A DNA stretch of 64,000 nucleotides from an uncultured archaeon (GTDB lineage Archaea; Altiarchaeota; Altiarchaeia; IMC4; SCGC-AAA252-I15). The DNA lies in NCBI GenBank assembly GCA_902384455.1, contig CABMCB010000059.1, positions 1 through 64,000 on the forward strand. Reading direction: 5' to 3'. Shown piece after piece: positions 2,520-58,892 of this stretch. The number at the start of each line of letters is the position of its first letter. The stretch's first letter is position 1. A program made the position numbers and the translations under genes. The notes beneath the pieces are model-generated. The model had not been told where the DNA came from, did not search any database, and saw only the letters and a list, made by a program, of their open reading frames with translations.

Positions 2520-2793
2520 ACGCAACTACTACAAGCCGCACGCGACCTGTCCGAAGTGCGGAAGCCTGGACCCGAAGCCGAAGTACGTGCCGCAGGACGC
2601 CAAACGGTATTATGATGCCATGACGAACTGGCACCACTTGAAGCACGACATAGCTCGAATAGAAGCAACGATGGGGCCGGTAGACTGGGTTGGTGAACTG
2701 CCGCCGGAGCCTAGCACGGATTTAATCAAGCCTGACCGCGTTGACTGCTTGTGCATCTGCGGCTGGCAATGGAGCGAAAATGGCACTGTTTGA
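2509..2793 (+). CDS. Hypothetical protein, Cys pairs
   Basis: CPKCG and CICG motifs; overlaps both neighbours in an operon-like arrangement. Confidence 0.6.
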   Translation: MAFERNYYKPHATCPKCGSLDPKPKYVPQDAKRYYDAMTNWHHLKHDIARIEATMGPVDWVGELPPEPSTDLIKPDRVDCLCICGWQWSENGTV

Positions 2794-3331
2794 ACCGGTA
2801 GTACAGTGGGTGCTGTACCAGGAAGACGACCATCGGCAACCTGGCAAGATTGTGAACCTGGGAGACGGCGCGGGAATGACGCGTCTCGGCATCACGTCGA
2901 ACAACTTCGGTGCTTACGTCGCTCCGAACTTTTTCACGGACATGTCTTTCACAGCCGCAGTCGTTCAGGCCAAGAAGGTCTACCGCGAACACTTCTGGAA
3001 TCTGTTCCACGGAGACAACATCGTGGCGAACGACTGCGCTGCGGTACTGCTGAGCAGTTCGGTCAACATCCGTGGTGGAGTTTCACATTCTGTGAAGATG
3101 CTCCAGCAGGTTCTCGGCGTGGAACAAGACGGCATTCTCGGACCAAAGACCGTGGACGAACTGAACTCCAAGGACAATCGCATCGTCGCGAACATGTTCA
3201 GAGGCGCGTGGGAGAACTTCTATCACGAACTGGTAGCGATGAACCCCGCGAAGGCTCAGTTCATGGACGGCTGGAAGGCTCGTGTTTGGTTTCCTTTCCC
3301 ATCGGATAAGGTACCGGACATTTATGAGTAG
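2780..3331 (+). CDS. GH108-like lysozyme/endolysin with peptidoglycan-binding domain
   Basis: E...DGAGMTRLGIT, YREHFW, LQQVLGVEQDGILGPKT, FMDGWKAR; GGAG RBS. Confidence 0.8.
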   Translation: MALFEPVVQWVLYQEDDHRQPGKIVNLGDGAGMTRLGITSNNFGAYVAPNFFTDMSFTAAVVQAKKVYREHFWNLFHGDNIVANDCAAVLLSSSVNIRGGVSHSVKMLQQVLGVEQDGILGPKTVDELNSKDNRIVANMFRGAWENFYHELVAMNPAKAQFMDGWKARVWFPFPSDKVPDIYE

Positions 3332-32651: not shown

Positions 32652-32999
32652 CTATTTAGACCTTCTAATCCTCTTGTATTCCACAAGAGTTCCCGAAGAC
32701 AGTTCATCAATGACTTGTCTTCTAACATCAGAAGCGTGTTCTCTTTTGTGACAGTTCGCACAAAGAACATCGCACTTCTTTATTTCTTTCTCTAGAGTCT
32801 TTATGGAGTCTCCGTTGTGAAACATCGACGATACGCTTCTTTTCTTGAGTCTAGGGTTTCTGTGATGAAATTCCAAGACGAGAATATCAGGTTCGCCACA
32901 CTTTACGCACGAGTGCGTTGAAAGATATTTCACAACAAAGATAGTATTTCTACGACGCCTCTCCATCTGCGCCGCTCTATCTGTTTTTGAATGACTCAT
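32652..32999 (-). CDS. HNH homing endonuclease
   Basis: CVKCG...LEFHH...EIKKCDVLCANCH; AT-rich. Confidence 0.85.
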   Translation of the reverse strand: MSHSKTDRAAQMERRRRNTIFVVKYLSTHSCVKCGEPDILVLEFHHRNPRLKKRSVSSMFHNGDSIKTLEKEIKKCDVLCANCHKREHASDVRRQVIDELSSGTLVEYKRIRRSK

Positions 33000-33001
33000 T
33001 A

Positions 33002-34081
33002 TCAGCGCCAAGGGTAGTTAAACGGATATGCCGGTCCAACGTACGAGGTGCGTCCTGATGTTCCGCGACCGAAGATTGTCTGCTCCGGAACGAAGCGGTA
33101 CTCTTCTAGCTCGCGGTCTTCCATTGCGCGTAGGTCGTTCAGACTCTTCAGCCAAATCTGGTAGTTCTTATCGAACTTGGCCTGGACCTTGGCATCGCTC
33201 GACCAGCGGTAGCATTGCGCGATGATTCCCTGACGGAAGTACTTCAGGTACTTGTCCGGGAACGGGTCAAACGTCTGCGATAGACTCGTGAACGTGACTG
33301 GTGGTTTCTGCGCAATCAGGTTGAACTGGAACACGACGCCGGTCTGTGAAGGCACCGGGCTGATTCTAATCGCAGTTCCGTATGGGTCAACAACGGTCCA
33401 CTTCACGCTGCCGTCATTCGTCACGGTTCCCGCAGGAGAGTTCGCCATCGGCCATGCTGGCTGAGACGCGCCTGTAGTTCCGTACTGAGTGACCACCTGC
33501 AGGTTTCCGTTGGTGTCTCGAACTTGTGTGATTGGGTTCTTCTGTTGCGTGTTGTTCGCAGTCGGGTCGGTGTAGACCGATAGAGAGCCGGGGTTGTTTC
33601 CGAATGTGGCGTCGATGTCCGAGCCGCCCCAGGTTCCGTAGTACGCCATGTAGTTGTAAATCGTGTTGCAGGTGAACGTCGGCCATGACCAGTTCAGCGG
33701 CTGCAGAATGCTGCCGGTCTGCTGTCCCTGGTGACGTCCGCACTCCGCGTAGCCCCAAGGCTTCGGAAGAGTACTCACGTTCGTTTCTTCTACGACGATT
33801 CCTTCCTGTAGCCACTCGATGTTGAACACGCTGGTGCCATCAGGGTTGATAAGAGCATAGTCCTGCTGCAGACTGTTCGTGTAGAAAATTGGAAGCTTGA
33901 CTTCGTTCCACTTGTGAGGAAATGGAACGCCAACGATGTCTGCGTAAACGTCAGAGCAGATAGTGATGAAAGGTTCAAGCTGATACGCAGCGACGTCGGC
34001 GAGAACAGGCTTCACGTCACCGAGGGTCACGACCTTGTCATACATCTGCAACAGCGTTTGTGTGCTTTGGGAATTAGCCAT
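33002..34081 (-). CDS. Head-tail adaptor-like protein with one Trp-rich repeat
   Basis: Paralogous to 31941-32651; internal DTNGNLQ...PAW...TNDGSVKW. Confidence 0.55.
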   Translation of the reverse strand: MANSQSTQTLLQMYDKVVTLGDVKPVLADVAAYQLEPFITICSDVYADIVGVPFPHKWNEVKLPIFYTNSLQQDYALINPDGTSVFNIEWLQEGIVVEETNVSTLPKPWGYAECGRHQGQQTGSILQPLNWSWPTFTCNTIYNYMAYYGTWGGSDIDATFGNNPGSLSVYTDPTANNTQQKNPITQVRDTNGNLQVVTQYGTTGASQPAWPMANSPAGTVTNDGSVKWTVVDPYGTAIRISPVPSQTGVVFQFNLIAQKPPVTFTSLSQTFDPFPDKYLKYFRQGIIAQCYRWSSDAKVQAKFDKNYQIWLKSLNDLRAMEDRELEEYRFVPEQTIFGRGTSGRTSYVGPAYPFNYPWR

Positions 34082-49309: not shown

Positions 49310-49387
49310 TGGTCGGAGAAGAAAGATTTGAACTTTCGTTCTCTGCTTTCCGAAAGCAGCGGGAACTCCAGGCTTCCCCATTCCCCG
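49310..49387 (-). tRNA. tRNA-Pro(CGG)
   Basis: Cloverleaf; loop TT-CGG-AA; CCA encoded. Confidence 0.9.
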
Positions 49388-49394
49388 ACTGGTG

Positions 49395-49694
49395 TTACGA
49401 CAAATTTTTTGTAATCTTCGGCATCAGCGCGGACTGCTTGAATCTCTGTCCGCCAAAAGAAACGATGTTCATGTCCGGGGTCGGGTCGCTTGCGCCCCAG
49501 TTGAAGATGACCACTTCGTGCTGCTTGGCCTTGTCCAAGAGTTCCGCGAAATCCGCCGGATGAATGTATGTCACTTCACCAGGTAGACCATAGCCTCGGT
49601 GAAGCTGAGCAATCACTGCTCTTGCTTCATCGAGTTCTTTTTTGTACCAGGTCAGTTCTGCTTCTGCTGCCTGGGCCATGCGGACAAGACTCAT
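49395..49694 (-). CDS. Hypothetical protein
   Basis: AAGGA RBS; between tRNAs. Confidence 0.55.
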   Translation of the reverse strand: MSLVRMAQAAEAELTWYKKELDEARAVIAQLHRGYGLPGEVTYIHPADFAELLDKAKQHEVVIFNWGASDPTPDMNIVSFGGQRFKQSALMPKITKNLS

Positions 49695-49711
49695 ATTGGT
49701 CCTTTTGAAAA

Positions 49712-49785
49712 TGGTCGAGAATGCTGGAATCGAACCAACCCCACATGCTCCCAAAGCACGCGTGCGGCCACAACACTTATTCTCG
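49712..49785 (-). tRNA. tRNA-Pro(UGG)
   Basis: Loop TT-TGG-GA; CCA. Confidence 0.9.
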
Positions 49786-49792
49786 ACTAAAC

Positions 49793-50209
49793 TTACGGCA
49801 AAATCTTTTTCTCAATCGCTGCAACCGTGATTGCGCGATAGTGGTCACCGGATGCGGCCTTCGCACCGTGGTCCGGCTGAATCCATTCCAACCAGCGGTT
49901 CATCGCTCTGCCCCACAGATGACCCTTCAGCTTTGCGCGATACGCGTGTGCTGAAATTGTTTCACCGGGCATGCCGTTGAACGCGAGCACGTTGATGAAC
50001 TGGTCAAACGCCACTAGCACTCTGTGCAAGTATGACTCACGCGATGCACGCTGCTCGGCGTGTGCTTCGTCTTCTGCTGTGAATGGCTTCTCAATGTCGA
50101 AGTGTCCTTCGACGGCGGCGCGGATAGATGTCATCACCAAACCCATTGCAACTAAACCAGCAATAGAACCTGCGATTATCTTTCCTGCTAGAAGCAATCC
50201 GTGTAGCAT
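49793..50209 (-). CDS. Membrane protein
   Basis: TM helix; DQFIN...G.P.ETISA motif. Confidence 0.65.
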   Translation of the reverse strand: MLHGLLLAGKIIAGSIAGLVAMGLVMTSIRAAVEGHFDIEKPFTAEDEAHAEQRASRESYLHRVLVAFDQFINVLAFNGMPGETISAHAYRAKLKGHLWGRAMNRWLEWIQPDHGAKAASGDHYRAITVAAIEKKILP

Positions 50210-50223
50210 TGTTCTCCAAAATT

Positions 50224-50298
50224 TGGTTCGGGCGGCACGACTCGAACGTGCATTAACTGGGTCAGAGCCAGTGTTCCTGCCAATTGAAAGACATCCGA
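50224..50298 (-). tRNA. tRNA-Gln(CUG)
   Basis: Loop CT-CTG-AC; CCA. Confidence 0.9.
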
Positions 50299-50368
50299 AC
50301 AGGGCCTACAATTCCGGGCCTTACATCAGGTTCTGAGGCCTAATGCCTGGAAATCTAGGCTTAAAGCT

Positions 50369-50443
50369 TGGTTGGGGCGAGTGGACTCGAACCACTATTA
50401 GAAGTTTCAAAGACTTCCTTCCTGCCAATTGAAAGACATCCCA
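50369..50443 (-). tRNA. tRNA-Gln(UUG)
   Basis: Loop CT-TTG-AA; same D arm as Gln(CUG). Confidence 0.9.
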
Positions 50444-50451
50444 ACGGAAAT

Positions 50452-50667
50452 TTACGGGAGCGGCGACTTCTGTAGATACATCGCCAAACCCAGTATAGCC
50501 GACGCGGCGGAGCCGATTGCGGCCATGATGAGAACATTATGAATGCCAACACCGGGTCGTAGGTTAAAACTCTGTGGCGCGATTCCTATCGCGGAGAAAG
50601 CGTTAATGACACCGCCTGCTGCTCCGCTAATCATCGCTGCCAACAGTCCCTTGGACCAGGGCTTCAT
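50452..50667 (-). CDS. Small two-TM protein (holin-like)
   Basis: AGGAG RBS; ends YLQKSPLP. Confidence 0.6.
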   Translation of the reverse strand: MKPWSKGLLAAMISGAAGGVINAFSAIGIAPQSFNLRPGVGIHNVLIMAAIGSAASAILGLAMYLQKSPLP

Positions 50668-50681
50668 AGTGCTCCTAAAAT

Positions 50682-50755
50682 TGGACCGCCCGAGTGGAGT
50701 CGAACCACTGGTGCCTCTTTTGCAGAGAGGTAGCTTGCCGTTTGCCGACGAGCGG
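50682..50755 (-). tRNA. tRNA-Cys(GCA)
   Basis: Loop CT-GCA-AA; U73. Confidence 0.9.
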
Positions 50756-50756
50756 T

Positions 50757-50843
50757 TGGCGGATGATGAAGGAATCGAACCCTCTCTACCTTTCAGTAGG
50801 CACAGTTTTCAAGACTGCTAGCCCCCATGGACTGCAATCATCC
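50757..50843 (-). tRNA. tRNA-Ser(UGA)
   Basis: Loop CT-TGA-AA; long variable arm; G73. Confidence 0.85.
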
Positions 50844-50852
50844 GTAAAATTT

Positions 50853-50940
50853 TGGCGGAAGGTAAGTGAATCGAACACTTACAACCTTTCGGTTGACTTA
50901 GGTTTAGCAAACCTATACGTTGCCTTTCCGTCAACCTTCC
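50853..50940 (-). tRNA. tRNA-Ser(GCU)
   Basis: Loop TT-GCT-AA; long variable arm; G73. Confidence 0.9.
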
Positions 50941-50943
50941 GCG

Positions 50944-51261
50944 TTACTTCTTGTCTGCGCCGCACTCACCCATCATCACCGTCTTGATTACGTGGTGATT
51001 GGCGCAACGAACTACACATTTAGCAATTTCAGCAAGAACCGTTTCCCACTTCCGACTTGAACCTGCCGCAATCTTGAACGACTTCGTGCTCGGGTCTACG
51101 TGGTCAAACTCCAAGGCAGCTGGATGCCAAACTGTTCCGGGTGCGCAATCCACGCAACCGCTGGATAGTTTGATGGCATCGACCTTGGCGCGAAACTCAA
51201 CATACTTCCTGGCCTGATATGACCGTTGTTGTTTCCGCGATTCTTCTGTTCTGATTCTCAT
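50944..51261 (-). CDS. HNH homing endonuclease
   Basis: CVDC...LEFDHV...EIAKCVVRCANHH. Confidence 0.85.
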   Translation of the reverse strand: MRIRTEESRKQQRSYQARKYVEFRAKVDAIKLSSGCVDCAPGTVWHPAALEFDHVDPSTKSFKIAAGSSRKWETVLAEIAKCVVRCANHHVIKTVMMGECGADKK

Positions 51262-51268
51262 AAATATA

Positions 51269-51552
51269 TTAGTGAGCGTTAGCCTGGATTCTGTATTCCG
51301 GAATACGGAATGACTATCATCCATCTTCGCCTGCTACCCGACCTTCATCACGCTCAACCAGCGCTCCGGTCCTATTTGCAGTTGCACCGATGTGGAGTGC
51401 CCAGTCTTGAATTAACTACGCTGGCCTTACCCGTACTCTCGCGAGTCCCGCAACTTCCACGGCATCGAGTTGAGATGTGTCCAGAACTTCCTCGGTCGCG
51501 TCGGCAAAGGCCGAAACTTTATAGCGCGGACCGCGATAGTCTAGCTCACTAA
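51269..51552 (-). ncRNA. rnpB: RNase P RNA (compact, type-A-like catalytic domain)
   Basis: P1 AGTGAGC/GCTCACT; P2 GACTATC/GATAGTC; CR-I GAGGAAGTTCTGGA; CR-V ACAGAATCCAGGCTAA; P6 CTCAAC/GTTGAG; P7 CGATG/CATCG; GCAA-CTGC-AAATAG...GGGTA-GCAG (P15/L15). Confidence 0.9.
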
Positions 51553-51872
51553 TCTAGTTTAACGTAACCGATGATACACAAAACCGCGACGAATGTCAAC
51601 ATAGAAATTGCGCCTGCGACAATCATCACATCGCCCGGGCTGTAAAGCCATCCCCGGAAACTGATGTAGTCCGCCAGGTATTTCAGGCTGGCGTCTGATG
51701 ACATCGTGCAATGGGTCATGTTCGTGACCTGAAACGGCCAGTCCCATCTGCCGTGATATGCGACCGGCATGAACCCGCCGTTGGCCCACATCACTAGTTT
51801 GTTCATCAAGCCGCCGCCGATATAAGAGCCGAGGCCTGCGAGCGCCCACTTCAAAAAACTTTTGCGCTTCAT
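51549..51872 (-). CDS. Membrane protein (DUF5317-like)
   Basis: N.LVMWANGGFMPV...LAD...SPGD. Confidence 0.65.
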   Translation of the reverse strand: MKRKSFLKWALAGLGSYIGGGLMNKLVMWANGGFMPVAYHGRWDWPFQVTNMTHCTMSSDASLKYLADYISFRGWLYSPGDVMIVAGAISMLTFVAVLCIIGYVKLD

Positions 51873-52636
51873 GACGCCGCTTCGGCCTTCGACACATCCG
51901 CTCGGATGTGACTGATAGGCACCGCGATTGTCGGTGTGGTCGTTCCATCGTAACCGCCGATGACCAACCCGATAATTCTGTGCGTCTTTTCGCTTACGAT
52001 TGCGCTGCCGGATGCGCCGTGCGAATCAAACTGCTGCACGAGCATCATGCCGTGAACCGCTGAGCCAGCCGGAGCGATAACGCTCGCGACACTGCCTCTC
52101 GTCATCTGCTTCGTCATCTTCTCACCGAGTGAGAAATTGACATCCACAGTTGCGTCACCAACGGCGACATCTGATTCGTCGCCCAGTTCGATGACTGGAA
52201 TCTTCGCGTCGGTCTTCATGTAGTAGACCGCGTAGTCTTGGTACTCGACGCCGTCTTCATTCGGCTCAATCACTTCGGCCTTCAGAAGCTTCACGGGCGT
52301 CTTCTCCGTGCCGACGTTGTCGGACACCGAGTAAACCAAACCCTTCGGCAAATCTTCCGGATTGCCCTCGGCGGTGCAGTGCCCTGCACCAATCAATTCG
52401 TAACCGCCAGCGACCTTCTTGAACGCGGTGACCGTGCACAAGAAGTGCGTCACGTCGTGGTCGTTCTTGATTACGCCGTCGTCCGTCTCTATTTCCGCGC
52501 CAGCAGGCAGCGTACCATAGAGCGCCATGCTCGCTTGGTAAACTTTACCGTCGAAGCCGCGAGGTGTCTTCACATCCGCGAACGCCGACGAACAAACCAA
52601 AATCAAAGCCGCTACGAGAGAGAAAATCTTTCTCAT
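51869..52636 (-). CDS. Secreted trypsin-like serine protease
   Basis: Signal peptide; AGHC, QDYA, HGASGS catalytic triad. Confidence 0.85.
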   Translation of the reverse strand: MRKIFSLVAALILVCSSAFADVKTPRGFDGKVYQASMALYGTLPAGAEIETDDGVIKNDHDVTHFLCTVTAFKKVAGGYELIGAGHCTAEGNPEDLPKGLVYSVSDNVGTEKTPVKLLKAEVIEPNEDGVEYQDYAVYYMKTDAKIPVIELGDESDVAVGDATVDVNFSLGEKMTKQMTRGSVASVIAPAGSAVHGMMLVQQFDSHGASGSAIVSEKTHRIIGLVIGGYDGTTTPTIAVPISHIRADVSKAEAAS

Positions 52637-52743
52637 CTACATTTGCCCGTCAGACACGCCTTGGCAGAGCACCGGTGTCAGACATGCGCCGTTCCAATTG
52701 GACCCTCTGCTCGGCGAACATCAGCAAATCAGCTATTAAGTTT

Positions 52744-52818
52744 TGGACGACCCGTCGGGACTTGAACCCGAATCCTCGGTTTAGGAAACCGTAACTCTTT
52801 CCATTGAGCTACAGGTCG
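52744..52818 (-). tRNA. tRNA-Arg(CCU)
   Basis: Loop TT-CCT-AA. Confidence 0.9.
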
Positions 52819-52819
52819 T

Positions 52820-52894
52820 TGGTAGGCCGTGGAGGAATCGAACCTCCATTCAGCGCTTAGAAGGCGCTAGTCCTGTCCGTTGAACGAACAGCCC
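52820..52894 (-). tRNA. tRNA-Arg(UCU)
   Basis: Loop CT-TCT-AA. Confidence 0.9.
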
Positions 52895-52900
52895 ACAGAA

Positions 52901-52981
52901 AAGTTGCCGACCGCCTTGTCCGTCTGGCTCCACAGGTTTTCAAGACCCGTGCCGGGAGTCGAACCCGGTTTTGTCGGACTT
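52901..52981 (-). ncRNA. Circularly permuted tRNA-like RNA (YrlA/Y-RNA-like) no. 1
   Basis: GTCCGAC-aaaa-CCGGG-TTCGACT-CCCGG-CACGGGT-cttgaaa-ACCTGTG-GA-GCC-agacggacaa-GGC-G-GTCGG. Confidence 0.75.
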
Positions 52982-53039
52982 GTCGGGCGCGTGGCTGGCC
53001 GTGTCACAGCCCTTTGGACTCGCGTTATCCGACTGAAAT

Positions 53040-53113
53040 TGGCAGGACGCGTAGGAATTGAACCCACTCCGTTCGGGTTGGAGCCGAACATGCTACCGTA
53101 ACACTTGCGACCT
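53040..53113 (-). tRNA. tRNA-Trp(CCA)
   Basis: Loop CT-CCA-AC. Confidence 0.9.
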
Positions 53114-53163
53114 GTAGTGCTCAAGAGCACACTGGGTGAGTTAGTGTGCCCTTGAGGTAAGAC

Positions 53164-53239
53164 TGGAGCGTGATACCAGATTCGAACTGGTGCGTACTGG
53201 GTGGAAGCCAGTCATGCTAGCCGCTAACATCAATCGCGC
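53164..53239 (-). tRNA. tRNA-Gly(UCC)
   Basis: Loop CT-TCC-AC; U73. Confidence 0.9.
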
Positions 53240-53248
53240 TCGAAACTA

Positions 53249-53518
53249 TTAAACTGTTGGTGCCGGAGCAAGTGCTGCTACGACGGTTGCATCTACCGCG
53301 TCAACTGCTGCTGCGTCTGCCGCGTCCTTCGCTGCTACTGCTGCTGCTACAGCGGTCGGGCCATTTTCAGCAATCAACTTAGCGATGTCTGCTTGCAACT
53401 TTGCCATGCTGTCTGCGAATGCCATCATTTCTCTCCGTAGTGCGTGAAGTAACAACCTGTCTTGATGCGATAGTTCGACTACTAACTTCGGGTTAGGTGA
53501 TTGGGCTTTTCCAAACAT
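53249..53518 (-). CDS. Small Ala-rich protein
   Basis: GAGG RBS; start uncertain. Confidence 0.5.
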   Translation of the reverse strand: MFGKAQSPNPKLVVELSHQDRLLLHALRREMMAFADSMAKLQADIAKLIAENGPTAVAAAVAAKDAADAAAVDAVDATVVAALAPAPTV

Positions 53519-53540
53519 TCGAACCTCGCTTTCAATTTTT

Positions 53541-53614
53541 TGGAGCGACGTACCAGAATCGAACTGGTGCCCGAACCTTGGCAAGGTTCTGTTCTACCAC
53601 TATACCAACATCGC
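53541..53614 (-). tRNA. tRNA-Gly(GCC)
   Basis: Loop TT-GCC-AA. Confidence 0.9.
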
Positions 53615-53617
53615 TCG

Positions 53618-53953
53618 TTACAAACCTCTGAACATCACCATGGCCTTTTCGTGGAGCACCAACTGCTCTGGTGTCATCTGGCCCACAACCTTGCGGAAGC
53701 GGCCCATCTTTCTGTTCACGTTCGGCCTGGTCGGGATGGTCGTCCTTACTGCTAGAGGACCGTCACCGTTCTGTTGCTCAACGAACTGTCTCGCCTGTGC
53801 TTCAGAACTAAATCTCTTCTCAACAATTTCTCCGGTGTTGTTGTCCAACTTCGTCGCGGAGTGTCCGAGCCAGTTCCACTTGTCTCCGTGGTTGCGCTCG
53901 TGCGGCAATCTTTTGCGGTCTTCATTTTCATGCTTCGGACGTTCGATTCGCAT
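53618..53953 (-). CDS. Hypothetical basic protein
   Basis: AAGGTG RBS; fills the gap between tRNAs. Confidence 0.55.
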   Translation of the reverse strand: MRIERPKHENEDRKRLPHERNHGDKWNWLGHSATKLDNNTGEIVEKRFSSEAQARQFVEQQNGDGPLAVRTTIPTRPNVNRKMGRFRKVVGQMTPEQLVLHEKAMVMFRGL

Positions 53954-53966
53954 AGTCACCTTAAAA

Positions 53967-54040
53967 TGGTACCCGTGGTCGGAATCGAACCGACGCTACG
54001 TCCGTGAGAGGGACGCGTTCTACCACTAGACTACATGGGC
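53967..54040 (-). tRNA. tRNA-Glu(CUC)
   Basis: Loop CT-CTC-AC. Confidence 0.9.
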
Positions 54041-54048
54041 ACAGAAAA

Positions 54049-54123
54049 TGGCGGAGATAGCGGGAATCGAACCCGCACTTTGCCCGTGACAGGGGCATGT
54101 CGTTACCAACTGACCCTATCTCC
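54049..54123 (-). tRNA. tRNA-Asp(GUC)
   Basis: Loop CT-GTC-AC; G73. Confidence 0.9.
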
Positions 54124-54130
54124 GCGAAAC

Positions 54131-54204
54131 TGGAGCTTCGTAAAGGAATTGAACCTTTACCTCATCCTTACCAAGGATGCGTTCTGCCGTTGAACTAACA
54201 AAGC
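54131..54204 (-). tRNA. tRNA-Thr(GGU)
   Basis: Loop TT-GGT-AA. Confidence 0.9.
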
Positions 54205-54214
54205 GTAAAACTTA

Positions 54215-54293
54215 TCCGGTGTGCTACCGTTACACTATAGCAACGAGCGGCTTTACCCGTTCCCGCCTGTGGGATTCGAACCCCTCTACCGGA
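54215..54293 (-). ncRNA. Circularly permuted tRNA-like RNA no. 2
   Basis: TCCGGT-ag..GGG-TTCGAAT-CCC-[hairpin]-TAGTGTAACGGTAGCAC-ACCGGA. Confidence 0.6.
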
Positions 54294-54297
54294 AGAT

Positions 54298-54371
54298 TGG
54301 AGCACCGTCGTGGAATCGAACCACGGCTTCTGCGCTACGAGGGCAGCTTCATGCCACTAGAACAACAGTGC
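54298..54371 (-). tRNA. tRNA-Thr(CGU)
   Basis: Loop CT-CGT-AG; C31:C39 mismatch. Confidence 0.85.
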
Positions 54372-54379
54372 AAAACTTT

Positions 54380-54488
54380 TGGAGGAAGTCCCTCTCACTT
54401 GGCCCATCCGGCGCAGGGCACCCCGAAGGGCTGGAGGTCCGCTTTCGACTGTGAAGAAGAAGCGTACTTACCGTTGAAGACTTCCTTC
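54380..54488 (-). ncRNA. CCA-ended structured RNA of unknown type
   Basis: AGGAAGTC/GACTTCCT then CCA; CGCTT/AAGCG arm; CCC-TTCG-GGG tetraloop hairpin. Confidence 0.5.
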
Positions 54489-54507
54489 GCCTTGCGGCGA
54501 GTAATCA

Positions 54508-54583
54508 TGGAGCACATCGCTGGATTCGAACCAACGTGTCGAAGGTACAAGCTTCGCATACTAGACCGCTGTATGAGACGTGC
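54508..54583 (-). tRNA. tRNA-Thr(UGU)
   Basis: Loop CT-TGT-AC. Confidence 0.9.
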
Positions 54584-54589
54584 TCGATA

Positions 54590-54665
54590 TGGCGTATCCC
54601 CTAGGATTTGAACCTAGGACCCTTCGGTTAACAGCCGAATGCTCTGGCCGCTGAGCTAGGGATAC
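54590..54665 (-). tRNA. tRNA-Asn(GUU)
   Basis: Loop CT-GTT-AA; G73. Confidence 0.9.
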
Positions 54666-54670
54666 AAAGA

Positions 54671-54758
54671 TGGCTGGAGCAGCAGGACTCGAACCTGCAA
54701 TGTGCTTTCGCACTGCCTGGGTAACAGCCAGGTGCTGTACCAATTGAGCCACACTCCA
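54671..54758 (-). tRNA. tRNA(GUU), Asn anticodon with long variable arm
   Basis: Loop CT-GTT-AC; variable arm GTGC-GAAA-GCAC; G73; 88 nt. Confidence 0.85.
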
Positions 54759-54768
54759 GTAGAAATTT

Positions 54769-54843
54769 TGGAGCACCCACTCGGAATCGAACCGAGATAG
54801 TCAGTTTCGAAGACTGATGCCCTATCCGTTGGACGACAGGTGC
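54769..54843 (-). tRNA. tRNA-Arg(UCG)
   Basis: Loop CT-TCG-AA. Confidence 0.9.
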
Positions 54844-55160
54844 TCGTGTGTTCTGATGCGATGACAATTTGCACAAACGACATCGCATTTCGAAATTTCT
54901 TCCAGTAACTTCTCCATTGAGGAGTTGTGATAGCCGCTGGAAATGTTGAACTTCTTTACTCCGCGAACATGGTCAAAATCCATGCACACAGATGGGAACT
55001 TGTTCCCGCAATCAGCACACGCGACGTTCTTAGCTGGCTCGATTATCTCCGCGTACAGTCTTTCTTTCCGTTTCGCGGATTTGTCGATGTAATACTGCTT
55101 GTGGTTTTTGTAATGCCTTCGGCCACAAGCTTTAGCCAGTTCTGAATTAGCGTACGCCAT
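54822..55160 (-). CDS. HNH homing endonuclease; stop codon inside tRNA-Arg(UCG)
   Basis: CADCG...MDFDHV...EISKCDVVCANCH. Confidence 0.85.
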   Translation of the reverse strand: MAYANSELAKACGRRHYKNHKQYYIDKSAKRKERLYAEIIEPAKNVACADCGNKFPSVCMDFDHVRGVKKFNISSGYHNSSMEKLLEEISKCDVVCANCHRIRTHEHLSSNG

Positions 55161-55164
55161 AAAT

Positions 55165-55241
55165 TGGTAGACCGTGGTGGATTTGAACCAACCATTATAG
55201 CCTTCGCAGGGCTATGTCCTATCCAGTTGAACGAACAGTCC
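55165..55241 (-). tRNA. tRNA-Arg(GCG)
   Basis: TAGCC-CT-GCG-AA-GGCTA. Confidence 0.9.
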
Positions 55242-55279
55242 ACATTAAATCGTACTTTCGAAAATTTGTCAAGAACTAT

Positions 55280-55954
55280 TTAGTTCAGTACTTCAACAAC
55301 TGCGGTTCTCATCTGGATAGATGAAAGCGCTGAGCCGGTCACAGCCTGCAACAGCAGGTTGTTCGTGCTCGCTGCGGTCAAGTTAACCGCTATGCCAGCC
55401 GCTACGTTGGTGTCCTGATACTCTGACATCGGAGCGGTTGCTGAAGCACCAATCAAGATTGCCAAAGCGCCGTGTCCTTCAAGCGTACCGGATGCACCGG
55501 TTGAAACTGTGTAAATGTGGCCTTCGAAGTTCCATGGGAAGTTCGTTTGTGAGGCCGTTGTCGCTTGGCTCGTCGCGGTCAAAACCGTCTGAGTGAAAGC
55601 GCCAGAGAAACCTAGCTGAATACCAATCGTCGGCGTCTGTGCGCCAGCCGTGGTGTAAATGCCCCACATGCGTACGCGAAGAACCTTTCCGGCGACGTTC
55701 ATGAACGCGGTCGGTAGCGCCAATGTGGCGAACGTTCCCGTGCCGTTCAATGCCGTCAGTGCAGCCGGAGCCGCGTTGTAAACAATCGCTGCGCCGCCTA
55801 GAGCGTAGTTCAAACCGTTCCAGAAGTACTTGCCCGACTTCTGCGTCGTATCGTACCAGTAATCTCCGTCAATCGGAGAAGCCGGTGCAACACCGGACGG
55901 AATGTTCAAGGGCGCTGCTGCCGCTGTTGAGTTCGGCAATGTGAGAAATGACAT
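55280..55954 (-). CDS. Tail-fibre-like Ala/Thr/Gly-rich protein
   Basis: APLNIPSGVAPASPIDGDYWYD head motif; GAGGAG RBS. Confidence 0.6.
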   Translation of the reverse strand: MSFLTLPNSTAAAAPLNIPSGVAPASPIDGDYWYDTTQKSGKYFWNGLNYALGGAAIVYNAAPAALTALNGTGTFATLALPTAFMNVAGKVLRVRMWGIYTTAGAQTPTIGIQLGFSGAFTQTVLTATSQATTASQTNFPWNFEGHIYTVSTGASGTLEGHGALAILIGASATAPMSEYQDTNVAAGIAVNLTAASTNNLLLQAVTGSALSSIQMRTAVVEVLN

Positions 55955-56037
55955 TTCTCCTCTCTTCGGCTACGCGCCGATATCACTGATGATGCAACTT
56001 GTACAAGATGAAAAGACTGATTGCTACACCAAGGACG

Positions 56038-56283
56038 TTACACACTGTTCGGGTCACTGCCAGCGCTAGGTCCAGTCTTTGGTGGTTCATTCTTCTCTTC
56101 TTTGCGCTTGGTCCGTTGCTCGTACCATTTGCGCCGTAAATCCAGATATTCCTTCTGCGCCGCGAGACTTTCCTGACTAACTTTCAGGCTCTCTTCAGCC
56201 ATGCGCTTCATTGCGTGGTCGTCGATGTAGATTGCGACCAGGATGAATATTTCTAAGACAAGAAGTGCATCCTGCCAAGTCAT
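56038..56283 (-). CDS. Small membrane protein
   Basis: TM helix plus coiled coil. Confidence 0.55.
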   Translation of the reverse strand: MTWQDALLVLEIFILVAIYIDDHAMKRMAEESLKVSQESLAAQKEYLDLRRKWYEQRTKRKEEKNEPPKTGPSAGSDPNSV

Positions 56284-56298
56284 AGTCACCTTCAAAAT

Positions 56299-56374
56299 TG
56301 GTACCCAGTGAGTGAATCGAACACTCCCCACCTCTTTGTAGGAGAGGCGCATACGACCAGTTTGCTAACCGGGT
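56299..56374 (-). tRNA. tRNA-Val(UAC), C33
   Basis: Loop CC-TAC-AA. Confidence 0.85.
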
Positions 56375-56682
56375 AATGCCTTAGCGATTTGTTGTTTCTT
56401 GATTCTCGCGTAAGGACGAATCTTTTTCAAAAACTCTCTTGCATTTCTGTTTGACACTATCCATCGCCAAACCTTTTTGTTGGTTCGTTTATCAGATGTG
56501 TGAATAGTGCCGAACTTAAAAAGGCGTTGAACGAACTTCAAAACTTTCACGTCTGTGTTCGTTATCGTTGCAATCGTTCGAAAATAATACTTGCCGTTCT
56601 TCGTTGCCTGATATTTCGCGAAACGGCAATGGCCTTCACCATCGAACAACCCACTCACATAAGCTAAGTCGATTTTTCTCAC
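56365..56682 (-). CDS. Single-motif LAGLIDADG homing endonuclease; stop codon inside tRNA-Val
   Basis: LAYVSGLFDGEG, ITNTD..VL, FL..IRPY..IKKQQ. Confidence 0.85.
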   Translation of the reverse strand: MRKIDLAYVSGLFDGEGHCRFAKYQATKNGKYYFRTIATITNTDVKVLKFVQRLFKFGTIHTSDKRTNKKVWRWIVSNRNAREFLKKIRPYARIKKQQIAKALPG

Positions 56683-56701
56683 TTAGTGCCTTTCGTAAAC
56701 T

Positions 56702-56775
56702 TGGTGGACCGCCGGAGAGTCGAACTCCGTCTTGATGCGTGCAAGGCAACCGTATTCCCGTCCTACTCGCAGCCC
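56702..56775 (-). tRNA. tRNA-Ala(UGC)
   Basis: Loop CT-TGC-AC; G3:U70. Confidence 0.9.
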
Positions 56776-56783
56776 ACATAAAT

Positions 56784-56857
56784 TGGTTGCGGATGTCGGA
56801 GTCGAGCCGACCAGCAGTGCTTATGAGACACCGTACCTCACCCGAGGTGTACCCGCA
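56784..56857 (-). tRNA. tRNA(CAU), Met/fMet-like, atypical
   Basis: Loop CT-CAT-AA; T loop CTCGACT; irregular D arm. Confidence 0.75.
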
Positions 56858-56866
56858 AAAGAAAAT

Positions 56867-56942
56867 TGGTAGCGTCGGCGGGATTCGAACCCGCGTGAGG
56901 ACCTTGAAAGGGTCCCATCCTAGGCCACTAGATGACATCGCC
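56867..56942 (-). tRNA. tRNA-Glu(UUC)
   Basis: Loop CT-TTC-AA. Confidence 0.9.
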
Positions 56943-57055
56943 ACAAAAGAAGCTAGAGCATGGCTTCTTTACAACTTCAGCTTACGCAAGGCTCCCGGCT
57001 GAAGCGCCCATACAGCGGGTGTTTACCGAGTAAACAACCCACATATGGGTTAAAT

Positions 57056-57140
57056 TGGTACCCCGTGAGAGATTTGAACTCCCATGGCTGTTAACCGACG
57101 CGTTCTAAGCGCGTTGTGTCTGCCGTTCCACCAACAGGGC
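57056..57140 (-). tRNA. tRNA-Leu(UAG)
   Basis: Loop CT-TAG-AA; long variable arm. Confidence 0.9.
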
Positions 57141-57151
57141 ACTGAAACTTA

Positions 57152-57211
57152 TGGAGCGGTCACTACCTGTGTGACAGGCACCTCCCCGGGCACTGCCCGG
57201 GAGCACCGCTC
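57152..57211 (-). ncRNA. CCA-ended two-arm mini-RNA
   Basis: GAGCGGT/ACCGCTC-CA closing stem; TCCCGGGC/GCCCGGGG and TGCCTGT/ACAGGTA arms. Confidence 0.5.
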
Positions 57212-57213
57212 GC

Positions 57214-57396
57214 TTACTTACGCATGTCTCGCACATGCTGGTAATATGAAAGCTGGTCCACCGGACGGTCGTGGTCATGACGACGGTCTTCGATGTCCGC
57301 GCTCATCGGATAATCTTTCGGGACTTGAAATCCCTTTGACGTATCCTTCGCGTCTCCGACAACTTTCATGCCTAGCTTCGGCTTATCGTCGGGCAT
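57214..57396 (-). CDS. Small hypothetical protein
   Basis: GAGGT RBS. Confidence 0.55.
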   Translation of the reverse strand: MPDDKPKLGMKVVGDAKDTSKGFQVPKDYPMSADIEDRRHDHDRPVDQLSYYQHVRDMRK

Positions 57397-57408
57397 ATTA
57401 CCTCAAAC

Positions 57409-57483
57409 TGGTAGTCTCTCTGTGACTCGAACACAGGTCTCTCGCTAATCAGGCAAGCATCCTAGCCGCTGGACGAAAAGACT
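57409..57483 (-). tRNA. tRNA-Ile(GAU), U37
   Basis: Loop CT-GAT-TA. Confidence 0.85.
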
Positions 57484-57491
57484 ACTGAAAT

Positions 57492-57582
57492 TGGTGGATG
57501 CGGAATGATTCGAACATTCTATGTGCCACAAGGACATCCTGTTTTACAGACAGGTACGACCCGCCGTCTTCGCCGCACATCC
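57492..57582 (-). tRNA. tRNA-Tyr(GUA)
   Basis: Loop CT-GTA-AA; long variable arm. Confidence 0.85.
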
Positions 57583-57593
57583 ACTGAAACTAA

Positions 57594-57680
57594 GGGAACC
57601 CACGGGTCACTCACCCGCGCCAATCACGGGTCCGGTACCGGATATCCGTAATCGTTCAATCTACCTCGAACTGCGTTCCC
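57594..57680 (-). ncRNA. Four-way-junction structured RNA
   Basis: GGGAAC/GTTCCC closing stem with three internal hairpins. Confidence 0.5.
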
Positions 57681-57688
57681 ACGAAACT

Positions 57689-57764
57689 TGGTGGGTCGCC
57701 AGCGACTTGAACGCTGAACTTGCTCCTTAAAAGGGAGAAATGTTGCCGCTAACACCTGCAACCC
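57689..57764 (-). tRNA. tRNA-Lys(UUU)
   Basis: Loop CT-TTT-AA. Confidence 0.9.
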
Positions 57765-57797
57765 ACGATAATCGGTAACGTTCTACCGATTGAAACT

Positions 57798-57872
57798 TGG
57801 TGGACTACCAGGGATTCGAACCCTGACCAAACTCGTTAAGAGCGAGCTATGCAACCGTAACACCTGTGGTCC
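57798..57872 (-). tRNA. tRNA-Lys(CUU)
   Basis: Loop CT-CTT-AA. Confidence 0.9.
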
Positions 57873-58020
57873 ACTGAAAAATCTGACAGCTTGTTGTCAT
57901 GGAACGGACTTTAATCGGAGTTCTACCGATGCTGTCTACGCCGTCTCACGTTGTATCCCCGCGTGAAGACTGTGTTCACGCCTCATGTTAAGCGACGACA
58001 CTGTCTCGTCGCGGGAAGAT

Positions 58021-58109
58021 TGGTACTCGATGAAGGAATCGGACCTTCGTGCAAGCGTAATCTACGCCGACTCGTTATAAGCGAGTGCCGCAAACCATCG
58101 CAATCGAGT
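58021..58109 (-). tRNA. tRNA(UAU), Ile anticodon with long variable arm
   Basis: ACTCG-CT-TAT-AA-CGAGT; variable arm GCGTA-GAT-TACGC; T loop TCCGATT; ACTCGAT/ATCGAGT-A-CCA. Confidence 0.8.
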
Positions 58110-58115
58110 AAAAAG

Positions 58116-58224
58116 TTGTCCGGAGCGTACGCTTTCGGCGTCTCACCCGCCATCACGAATGCCGCGTCAACGGCACTGACTTCCCCTCGTTAGACTCGGT
58201 TGACGCCGGTCGCGAGTCGGACAA
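58116..58224 (-). ncRNA. Structured spacer RNA
   Basis: TTGTCCG/CGGACAA outer stem; GCGTCAAC/GTTGACGC inner stem. Confidence 0.45.
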
Positions 58225-58226
58225 AT

Positions 58227-58305
58227 TGGTGCGCCGCGTGAGATTCGAACTCACATGTGGTCACGTTTTAAGTGTGCCGCGTATGCCGCATTCCGCCAGC
58301 AGCGC
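58227..58305 (-). tRNA. tRNA-Leu(UAA) lacking the long variable arm
   Basis: Leu-type D arm; loop CT-TAA-AA; 79 nt. Confidence 0.8.
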
Positions 58306-58532
58306 TAAACTCTTGTGCTCGTCGCGGAAGCTAGCGTATCGCTGGTTCCGGGCTGATACGCAACCGTACCTGAAGCACAAACATCGCTAGGGTCAACAAC
58401 CCATTGCTTCCATGCCAGCCGGGTTGCAACCCGTAGGCACTTCAGATGTGGACTTCTACCACGCGAAAACTTATGAGACAGCCCTGGCCGAAGCCACTCC
58501 GGGTAATACCTTAGTCTTACGTCTCAAACTTT

Positions 58533-58593
58533 TTCGGTGTGCCCACTACACTACTTCTGGCTAGGCCAGCACGGAGTCGAACCGTCTACCGAA
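58533..58593 (-). ncRNA. Circularly permuted tRNA-like RNA no. 3 (minimal)
   Basis: TTCGGT-ag-ACGG-TTCGACT-CCGT-g-CTGGC-cta-GCCAG-aag-TAGTGTAGTGGGCAC-ACCGAA. Confidence 0.65.
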
Positions 58594-58596
58594 TCT

Positions 58597-58683
58597 TGGT
58601 CGCCCACACAGGACTCGAACCTGTACGCTTTTCACGGCACCGGGTTTTGAATCCGGCATGTCTGCCAGTTCCATCAGCAGGCG
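58597..58683 (-). tRNA. tRNA-Leu(CAA)
   Basis: Loop TT-CAA-AA; long variable arm. Confidence 0.9.
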
Positions 58684-58742
58684 AAATTCTCCCGGCAAAG
58701 GCCGGGAAGGGGTGGTTACCTCAGCGCTAAGCGCTCCTAAAT

Positions 58743-58816
58743 TGGTCCCTGCTGTTTGAATCGAACAAACACGACCGGCTTTTCAGACCGGGATGCGACC
58801 ACTACATCAAACAGGG
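58743..58816 (-). tRNA. tRNA-Phe(GAA)
   Basis: Loop CT-GAA-AA. Confidence 0.9.
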
Positions 58817-58817
58817 T

Positions 58818-58892
58818 TGGGGCGAACGTCGGGATTCGAACCCGAACCGGCGGATTCACAGTCCACCGTGCTGCCGTTACACTACACACGCC
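58818..58892 (-). tRNA. tRNA-His(GUG)
   Basis: Loop CT-GTG-AA; G-1:C73. Confidence 0.9.

Follow-up and report, generated by a model that had tools for sequence, protein, structure and literature searches.

A putative RNase P RNA gene in the tRNA array of a tailed phage binned with an uncultured archaeon

The gene for ribonuclease P (RNase P) RNA is counted among those of cells and organelles, and work on phage transfer RNAs (tRNAs) takes its supply by the host for granted. In the bacterial enzyme, as set out in the accessible part of PMC10731613, the 3'-RCC of the tRNA pairs with the GGU of L15, J5/15 contacts U(-1) through its A248, the T-loop is reached by P9-P11, and the catalytic metals are held by the bulged U of P4 together with J3/4. 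Reduced forms of the RNA have been described in bacteria of the candidate phyla radiation (CPR), where they fall below Rfam thresholds and were found only with lowered cut-offs, and some cellular class A RNAs likewise have no P18 (PMC8172020, partial text). Among viruses, an RNase P-like RNA of camelpox virus, an orthopoxvirus, has been reported to be inactive on pre-tRNA in vitro and to show only 'some secondary structure similarity' (PMC3001073, partial text). Theta (hepatitis delta virus-like) ribozymes located beside phage tRNAs have been proposed to make tRNA maturation less dependent on host RNases, and RNase P itself is treated as a host enzyme in that paper, as far as its available text goes (PMC10879173). 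No report of a phage-encoded RNase P RNA was found in the full-text literature (paywalled papers and supplements lay outside the search). Here, an RNase P RNA homologue is described that lies within a tRNA array in the first 64 kb (the window) of contig CABMCB010000059.1 (C59; 99,937 bp), part of a 2.41 Mb archaeal assembly of 103 contigs. The RNA is a conserved and structurally constrained homologue of RNase P RNA in a phage tRNA array, without a phage rnpA gene. We consider it likely that it is a working RNase P RNA gene of a tailed phage, derived from class A and processing the pre-tRNAs of the phage's own tRNA cluster.

Homology to bacterial RNase P RNA, and the homologue family

Infernal matched positions 51264-51553 of the window (minus strand, 290 nucleotides (nt)) to the bacterial class A model RF00010 over model positions 1-367 of 367, with 79.8 bits and E-values of 2.3e-24 (901-nt search) and 1.4e-24 (per genome). 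The preliminary description of this stretch had recognised an RNase P RNA here, which this significant match bears out; its extent, given there as 284 nt at 51269-51552, is corrected. The helices and loop that it named (P1, P2, P4, P7, P8, P9, P15 and the L15 GGU) are all in the sequence, and the likeness to the Escherichia coli RNA that it drew agrees with the RF00010 consensus, the consensus rather than the E. coli sequence being what was compared here. P3 and P5 are likewise present, and P4 consists of eight pairs around the bulged U. For P6, the pairing CAAC/GTTG stands, and the other two pairs of the 6-bp helix first proposed (CTCAAC/GTTGAG) overlap P17. A hairpin first labelled P19 is present as a 6-bp AUUCCG/CGGAAU helix between P2 and CR-V; in relatives it often carries GNRA-type loops, and it is paired in 72% (16 sequences). 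The absence of P18 and P13/P14 and the shrinkage of the CR-II/CR-III region had also been seen correctly: the 24 model positions of P18 correspond to 0 nt and the 90 positions of CR-II, P12-P14 and CR-III to 20 nt. A few relatives possess a hairpin at the P18 site, and across the family the specificity-domain region ranges from almost nothing to about 100 nt. The elements with which bacterial RNase P contacts substrate and metals are all kept in the C59 RNA.

Homologues were identified within the assembly and among viral records. Contig C38 of the same assembly (36.7 kb, 30 tRNAs) is a syntenic relative of C59, with 22 open reading frames (ORFs) common to both, and its array holds an RNase P RNA of its own (95 bits, RF00010). 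IMG/VR relatives of C59 were found by terminase (44-65% identical), and one of them, the complete record G003 (118.8 kb, terminal repeats, 77 ORFs in common with C59), encodes an RNase P RNA inside its tRNA array that scores 100.2 bits against RF00010, above the gathering score. The RNAs of C59, C38 and G003 show 68% column identity. An exact search pattern drawn from these three (CR-I, then 15-40 nt, then P8) matched 19 IMG/VR contigs, 18 of them new, and 64 metagenome contigs. Seventeen of the 18 new IMG/VR records gave a full RF00010 match (65.9-111.8 bits, 260-334 nt; 4/18 above the cut-off), and record G006 carries the signature with no RF00010 match. The signature had no match in the scanned species-representative genome collection (own assembly excluded), hence no prophage or donor lineage was found, and none of 50,697 GenBank phage records was matched by blastn, either with the C59 locus or with the family's best-scoring member. 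Removal of duplicates left 56 distinct family sequences of 254-384 nt. tRNA genes were located within 1 kb of 61 of 65 family matches, always on the same strand.

For the analysis of covariation, the helices of the C59 RNA (P4 and P6 as pseudoknots) were projected onto MAFFT alignments of 16 and of 56 sequences. Standard pairs made up 85.5% (16 sequences) and 90.7% (56 sequences), compared with 70.7 +/- 0.7% and 73.8 +/- 0.4% in shuffles (0 of 500 reached the observed value in each case) and with 32-39% and 31-41% when partners were slid by 1-3 columns. Changes on both sides were seen in 48 of 82 pairs (16 sequences) and in 53 of 68 (56 sequences; 20-30 when slid), and the covariation score was 0.409 and 0.474, respectively (at most 0.097 when slid, 56 sequences). 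Among the 56 sequences, the helices were paired as follows (pairs with both-side changes in brackets): P2 99.5% (6/7), P4 99.8% (3/8), P6 97.2% (4/4), P7 93.6% (5/5), P9 99.6% (5/5), P15 98.6% (3/4), P16 100% (3/4) and P17 93.9% (5/5). Covariation in P4 and P6, whose lack had been named beforehand as counting against the reading, is thus present. P8 is nearly invariant. P1 is present in every family member, though its column count is only 53.6% paired (56 sequences) because MAFFT places the C59 3' strand in a different register. Outside the search pattern, L15 CGGGU, J5/15 CAA, CR-IV AGA·G·AU and CR-V ACA·AA·C...G·CUA are invariant in 56/56. A reading frame is open over at least 90% of the RNA in only 8 of 56 sequences and the lengths are distributed evenly over the three residues modulo 3; with no conserved frame and such a spread of lengths, the region is taken as non-coding.

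The P4 helix of the family is rewired relative to cellular RNAs. The RNase P RNAs of five soil bacteria (Planctomycetota, a deltaproteobacterial genome bin, two Acidobacteriota and Chthoniobacterales) scored 181-312 bits over 388-494 nt, and all five possess the canonical CR-I GAGGAAAGUCC and a CR-V of the form ...GGCUUA. The phage family possesses CR-I GAGGAAGUUC and CR-V ...GGGCUA, so that P4 reads AGU[U]C / G·GCU versus the canonical AAG[U]C / G·CUU. The three pairs above the bulged U are kept, changing from A-U, A-U and G-C to A-U, G-C and U-G. These comparisons bear on the notion that the C59 locus is bacterial DNA with an ordinary rnpB of a cell, or a captured fragment undergoing decay. 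Phage-labelled records can indeed hold canonical copies with no tRNA nearby (252 bits in Microcystis phage MaAM05, 294 bits in an UNVERIFIED scaffold; see below). Against this, the cellular RNAs are set apart from the family, which scores 66-112 bits over 254-384 nt; C59 is a closed genome of about 99.8 kb with virion genes; and the signature is absent from the species-representative genomes scanned. Decay is excluded by the compensated divergence across the 56 sequences, and we give this explanation practically no credence.

A number of observations weigh against a working enzyme. The score of 79.8 bits lies under the RF00010 gathering score (100 bits), which is why a default Rfam scan of the window gave only 27 tRNAs; homology holds despite this in view of the E-value of 2.3e-24. 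The fold energy of the C59 RNA differs from that of shuffled sequences by z = -1.76 only, with 12 of 200 shuffles folding at least as well, and the minimum-free-energy fold gives P1, P2 and the P2/CR-V hairpin, not the native core. Of the five regions conserved among RNase P RNAs, CR-II and CR-III are gone, and CR-I departs from the canonical form at two positions beside the metal-binding bulged U. Support for the inner pairs of P10/P11 is poor (about 57% paired, 16 sequences). Invariance of CR-I and P8 arises by construction, since both formed the search pattern for most of the family, and the percentages of paired positions are inflated because the structure was derived from C59 itself; the counts of both-side changes relative to the slid controls are not inflated in this way. 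The promoter located upstream of the C59 RNA (Table 1) is not conserved in 15 relatives, where it scores 6-9 of 12. Finally, the only earlier viral 'RNase P-like RNA' found, that of camelpox virus, was inactive in vitro (PMC3001073, partial text).

Some of these points would suit a structured but non-catalytic phage RNA, acting as a decoy or regulator that soaks up host RnpA or binds pre-tRNAs and so modulates host RNase P. The loss of CR-II/III and P18 and the altered CR-I beside the catalytic bulged U fit such a role, and the camelpox RNA offers a case of an RNA that is expressed and inactive (PMC3001073, partial text). A decoy, however, has no need for L15 CGGGU, J5/15 CAA, CR-IV, CR-V and the bulged-U geometry of P4 to be invariant or compensated in 56 sequences, nor for strict linkage to tRNA arrays in which all genes encode CCA, and a phage that expresses 34 tRNAs gains nothing obvious by blocking their 5' maturation. 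We regard this explanation as unlikely and retain a catalytic RNase P RNA as the preferred reading.

Table 1. Positions of the RNase P RNA, its elements and other features of C59 (window coordinates unless stated otherwise)
Feature	Position	Strand	Partner, sequence or support
RNase P RNA homologue, class A-derived, reduced specificity domain	51264..51553	-	RF00010; 56 distinct homologues; covariation
P1, 5' strand	51543..51553	-	Partner 51268-51279; ATTAGTGAGCT / (A)·GCTCACTAAT
P2, 5' strand GACUAUC	51535..51541	-	Partner 51312-51318 (GATAGTC); 99.5% paired
CR-I / P4 5' strand, GAGGAAGUUCUGGA (DNA GAGGAAGTTCTGGA), bulged U	51480..51493	-	Variant of canonical GAGGAAAGUCC
P6 pseudoknot, 5' strand CAAC	51469..51472	-	Partner GUUG 51355-51358 in P17 loop; covariation
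P7 5' strand (CGATG / CATCG), P8 hairpin, P9 hairpin (GCGA loop)	51433..51467	-	Covariation of P7 and P9
Specificity-domain remnant: P10/P11 and short CCAG...CUGG stem-loop	51393..51432	-	GGGUAAG, A·U·C conserved
P15-P16-P17 arm with L15	51331..51381	-	CGGGU at 51336-51340; P15 CTGC / GCAG; CGGGTA
CR-IV / J18-2, AGAUGGAUG (DNA AGATGGATG)	51318..51326	-	AGA·G·AU invariant 56/56; P18 site just upstream empty
Hairpin AUUCCG/CGGAAU (6 bp) between P2 and CR-V	51295..51311	-	Only in part of family
CR-V / P4 3' strand, ACAGAAUCCAGGCUA (DNA TCCAGGCT)	51280..51294	-	ACA·AA·C, G·CUA invariant 56/56
Sigma-70-type promoter TTGACA-17 nt-TATCAT	51571..51599	-	11/12; ends 17 nt before RNA 5' end
tRNA array, 34 genes (ARAGORN; 27 by Rfam at gathering score)	49310..58891	-	Same strand as RNase P RNA
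DUF5317 membrane protein ORF, upstream of RNA	51549-51872		Stop codon within P1 5' strand; contains promoter
Small ORF directly downstream of RNA	50944-51324	-	Overlaps RNA 3' end as listed; no Pfam family
Paralogous small ORF	54822-55160	-	No Pfam family
Paralogous small ORF	32652-33011	-	
tRNA-Ile(UAU), 89 nt	58021-58109	-	ARAGORN
tRNA-Phe(AAA), 79 nt	58227-58305	-	ARAGORN
Second tRNA-Asn, 88 nt	54671-54758	-	ARAGORN
GH108 lysozyme with peptidoglycan-binding domain	2741-3331		
Major head protein ORF, 342 amino acids	35569-36597	-	
Sugar/polysaccharide cluster	91295-99822 (contig C59)		

The phage genome and its host

C59 carries an exact 127-bp terminal direct repeat, from which it is taken to be a closed, complete circular genome of about 99.8 kb, and its genes include those for a large terminase, an SU10-type portal and a major head protein. 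It is a complete tailed bacteriophage and not archaeal chromosome. The element had been called phage-encoded at the outset, which is borne out by these packaging and virion genes and by the syntenic relatives that carry the RNA too. The assembly as a whole is that of an archaeon, with contig C2 carrying the 3' end of an archaeal 23S ribosomal RNA followed by an archaeal-type RNase P RNA (RF00373, 71.6 bits). C38 is a fragment of a phage related to C59, likewise placed in the archaeal bin. About ten contigs of the assembly are tetranucleotide outliers, and C4 (69 kb) is an unrelated tRNA-rich contig with 25 tRNAs, 24 of them with CCA. The sequencing runs listed for the locus comprise four DNA runs of one study, with small shares of 0.06-0.18, and no RNA run. 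The ORFs in C38 and G003 that match the head protein are shorter than that of C59 (183 and 211 amino acids, respectively) and share 73-89% identity with it where they match; in these two phages the gene may be split or interrupted. The sugar/polysaccharide cluster of C59 comprises three glycosyltransferases, an RmlD-like reductase, a Polysacc_synt_2 dehydratase and a GDP-mannose 4,6-dehydratase. The last of these was uninformative as to host lineage, its identities being flat (56-67%) across many phyla.

Several features of C59 point to a bacterium bearing peptidoglycan as the host, despite the archaeal bin. The combination found in its tRNA-Tyr (long variable arm, G1-C72, A73) is one that we take to be the bacterial identity set, archaeal tRNA-Tyr having a short arm and C1-G72. 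In its tRNA-His, the gene itself supplies a G-1 that faces C73. Among the phage proteins are a GH108 lysozyme bearing a peptidoglycan-binding domain, a DNA polymerase of family A, a UvrD helicase and GroES. The terminase has 64 matches among GenBank phages, every one of them either a phage of bacteria or unassigned; the best, and the nearest cultured relative, is the Acidobacteriota phage Tunturiibacter phage Tunturi_3 (25.5% identity). No RF00010 match was found in the 97.6 kb of Tunturi_3, which leaves no cultured model system. Against the archaeal model RF00373 (gathering score 84) the RNAs of C59 and C38 reached 40 and 32.3 bits, both below that score, and the archaeon's own RNase P RNA gave 71.6 bits with RF00373 and 26.3 bits with RF00010. 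The bacterial-type tRNA-Tyr, lysozyme, promoter, replication genes, terminase kin and RNase P model scores together indicate that C59 was mis-binned.

It could be supposed instead that the virus infects the archaeon of its bin and that the RNA works with archaeal RNase P proteins. Both C59 and C38 lie in that bin, and the rare CR-I GAGGAAGUUC occurs at 20 of 26 loci in the bin's archaeal order (L209-L232 among them), including the bin's own RNA, and in none of the five soil bacteria. The features listed above stand against this, from the bacterial-type tRNA-Tyr, GH108 lysozyme, sigma-70-type promoter, family A polymerase, UvrD and GroES to the 64/64 terminase matches and the preference of the RNA for the bacterial model (79.8 versus 40 bits). 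Furthermore, the archaeon's own RNA lacks the P16/P17/P6 arm found in the phage RNA. An archaeal host is very improbable on this evidence. The CR-I form common to the phage family and the archaeal order may be a coincidence and is most likely convergent, all the other evidence being bacterial and the archaeal RNAs being without the P16/P17/P6 arm.

The tRNA array and the proposed role of the RNA

C59 carries 34 of the 131 tRNA genes predicted in the assembly, all on one strand. CCA is encoded by 34/34 tRNA genes of C59, 30/30 of C38 and 29/31 of G003, compared with 12/42 on other contigs of the assembly (C4 excluded). Recognition driven by CCA, as the preliminary description had suggested, fits these counts and the invariant L15 CGGGU (56/56). 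U is present at -1 in 19 of the 34 C59 tRNA genes, as counted from the tRNA table. Eleven of 33 spacers in the array are of 10 nt or less, four of them a single nucleotide, so short that one RNase P cut would separate neighbouring tRNAs. Almost every tRNA gene of the arrays of C59, C38 and G003 possesses an A/G-TTT-type trailer (ATTT, AGTTT) right after CCA, and many have ...(C/T)(A/T)GT in front of them; the two motifs could act as signals for 3' and 5' processing that the three phages share. Two of the tRNAs with unusual ARAGORN predictions (Table 1), tRNA-Ile(UAU) and tRNA-Phe(AAA), are outside the 27 Rfam matches at gathering score; these two and the second tRNA-Asn may be odd tRNAs or miscalls. 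The three small ORFs in Table 1 are paralogous, all matching one G003 ORF, and show an HNH-like Cys/His pattern by eye, so they may be homing endonucleases scattered in the array.

The promoter is the best sigma-70-type match in the 10.6 kb array region. As a trait of the family an own promoter was dropped, the 11/12 match being specific to C59. Six of 15 relatives (L001, L044, L046, L048, L051 and L058) have a small hairpin, its loop AACGAAA, some 8-12 nt upstream of the RNA; in L052 and L057 its place is taken by the 3' end of a tRNA, at a distance of 2-9 nt. Since the RNA directly follows a tRNA 3' end or this hairpin, co-transcription with the array is suggested for relatives.

Six-frame searches for rnpA (PF00825) gave no match in the whole assembly and none in five related viral records (0/5), three of which are at least 95% complete; the absence of rnpA noted earlier thus extends to all of these. 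With no phage rnpA found, the simplest model is that the RNA would use host RnpA. Alternatively, the RNA could be catalytic without host RnpA, either alone or with an unrecognised phage protein unrelated to RnpA. The missing rnpA in the phage and its relatives and the many phage ORFs (most of them) with no family assignment are compatible with this, and bacterial RNase P RNA is able to work without protein in vitro when the ionic strength is high. Protein-free activity is, however, not expected under cellular conditions, and no ORF consistently adjoins the RNA among C59, C38 and G003. J18/2, J5/15 and P15, which are RnpA or leader contacts in bacterial enzymes (PMC10731613, accessible part), are moreover conserved. 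There is in our estimation only a small chance that host RnpA is dispensed with, and catalysis of tRNA 5' maturation with host RnpA is the probable function, as judged from sequence.

The proposed mechanism is as follows. The RNA derives from a bacterial class A RNase P RNA and has kept its catalytic domain whole (P1-P6, bulged U, J5/15, CR-IV, CR-V and P15-P17 with the L15 GGU), while its specificity domain has been cut to the P7-P11 cruciform plus a short stem-loop, with P18 lost. During infection it would be produced from its own sigma-70-type promoter (C59) or within the tRNA transcript (relatives), would join the host RnpA protein and would cut the 5' leaders off the 34 pre-tRNAs of the phage. 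The pre-tRNA would be held mainly by pairing of L15 with the encoded 3'-CCA, in addition to the retained P9-P11 contacts, and where tRNA genes lie 1-10 nt apart the same cut would also free the 3' end of the upstream tRNA. In this manner the capacity for tRNA 5' processing would be raised or secured while the phage floods the cell with tRNA precursors, from which we infer a benefit to the phage. The specificity of the phage RNA might in addition be relaxed. Such a role would suggest that the expression of phage tRNAs can be limited by 5' processing, or that phage and host are in conflict over this step.

A wider class of viral RNase P RNAs and comparison with known systems

A full-size canonical class A RNA (L233; G032:C270:674-1053, minus strand; 260.6 bits) lies between tRNAs, 6 nt from the upstream one, on a 2 kb contig with four tRNAs that was binned in another archaeal genome of the same family. 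Prompted by this locus, IMG/VR was scanned with the canonical CR-I, giving 69 matches on 68 stretches. Twenty-five of these lie in dense same-strand tRNA arrays with 2-20 tRNAs within 1 kb (loci L304-L328, records G058-G082), and all 25 are full-model RF00010 matches (49.7-299.5 bits, 207-415 nt; 17/25 above the cut-off). Records rated 100% complete are among them (463, 162 and 168.6 kb, with terminal repeats in the one of 168.6 kb); the viral status of the 25 rests on IMG/VR, where three of the records are classed as proviruses. The smallest RNA (207 nt) is without P12-P14 and the whole P15-P17 arm and keeps P18, and those of 221 and 227 nt are without most of the specificity domain and keep P15-P17. 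With some viral RNAs smaller, the C59 RNA is mid-range in a series of reductions, and, although first termed 'minimal', it is not the most reduced viral form, other viral contigs carrying RNAs of 207-235 nt.

Two further records were considered as precedents and rejected. Microcystis phage MaAM05/PhiMa05 (MW495066.1, about 115284-115683; L234 3970-4369) holds an unannotated canonical RNase P RNA (251.8 bits) in a context of fabI, engB, mtgA and glyS, with no tRNA within 4 kb, which looks cellular. The UNVERIFIED faecal scaffold MT836823.1 likewise holds a canonical RNA (294 bits) with no tRNA within 4 kb. Both RNAs are canonical, without tRNAs nearby, and have housekeeping-type neighbours or an unverified source; the PhiMa05 record is, in addition, disputed as an intact viral genome (PMC13623518, partial text). 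RNase P is not mentioned in the available text of the PhiMa05 papers, PMC13623518 included, and the cellular-looking context of the RNA bears on this published dispute.

The C59 RNA appears to belong to a sizeable, unreported class of virus-borne RNase P RNAs. We lean, with less assurance than for C59 itself, towards the view that phages commonly encode their own catalytic RNase P RNAs in tRNA arrays, which would have been minimised independently from 415 down to 207 nt, the C59 family being a branch with a rewired P4. If this is true, RNase P would be the first of the core ribozymes of translation known to be carried by viruses, phage tRNA supply would be freed from the host RNase P RNA, and the series would show which parts of the ribozyme are dispensable when all substrates carry CCA. 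A phage RNase P RNA would add a ribozyme to the translation-related genes carried by viruses, and the family provides dozens of natural minimal variants, with defined CCA-encoding tRNA substrates, for testing the modules behind substrate recognition and catalysis. On the practical side, default Rfam thresholds miss phage RNase P RNA genes, and an 'extra' RNase P RNA of bacterial type in a genome bin can be a sign that a phage has been mis-binned, as with C59 in its archaeal bin.

Compared with the class A RNA modelled by RF00010, the C59 RNA is the same in P1-P9, P15-P17, the P4/P6 pseudoknots, the bulged U, J5/15, CR-I/IV/V and the L15 GGU. It differs from cellular class A RNAs in its length of 290 nt and score of 79.8 bits, in being without CR-II, P12-P14, CR-III and P18, in its altered P4, and in being encoded by a phage within a tRNA array with no rnpA nearby. 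The type T RNase P RNA of Thermoproteaceae, which is archaeal and cellular, is a natural RNA that works with most of the specificity domain gone; it is the more extreme of the two, whereas the C59 RNA keeps P7-P11, and among viral RNAs those of 221-227 nt, on other viral contigs, come closer to it in how much has been lost. Like the C59 RNA, some CPR RNAs are without P12, P13, P14 and P18, but they are the sole cellular RNase P RNA of small-genome bacteria, whereas the phage RNA is viral, and the UGG/GGU motif is gone in some of them (PMC8172020, partial text) and invariant in the phage family. The camelpox RNA is virus-encoded like that of C59 but belongs to a eukaryotic virus without a tRNA array (PMC3001073, partial text); the C59 RNA, by contrast, possesses a full covariance-model match, covariation, conserved core nucleotides and linkage to tRNAs. 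Theta ribozymes are small, cis-acting and proposed to act on 3' trailers (PMC10879173, available text), whereas the C59 RNA would be a trans-acting enzyme of the 5' end.

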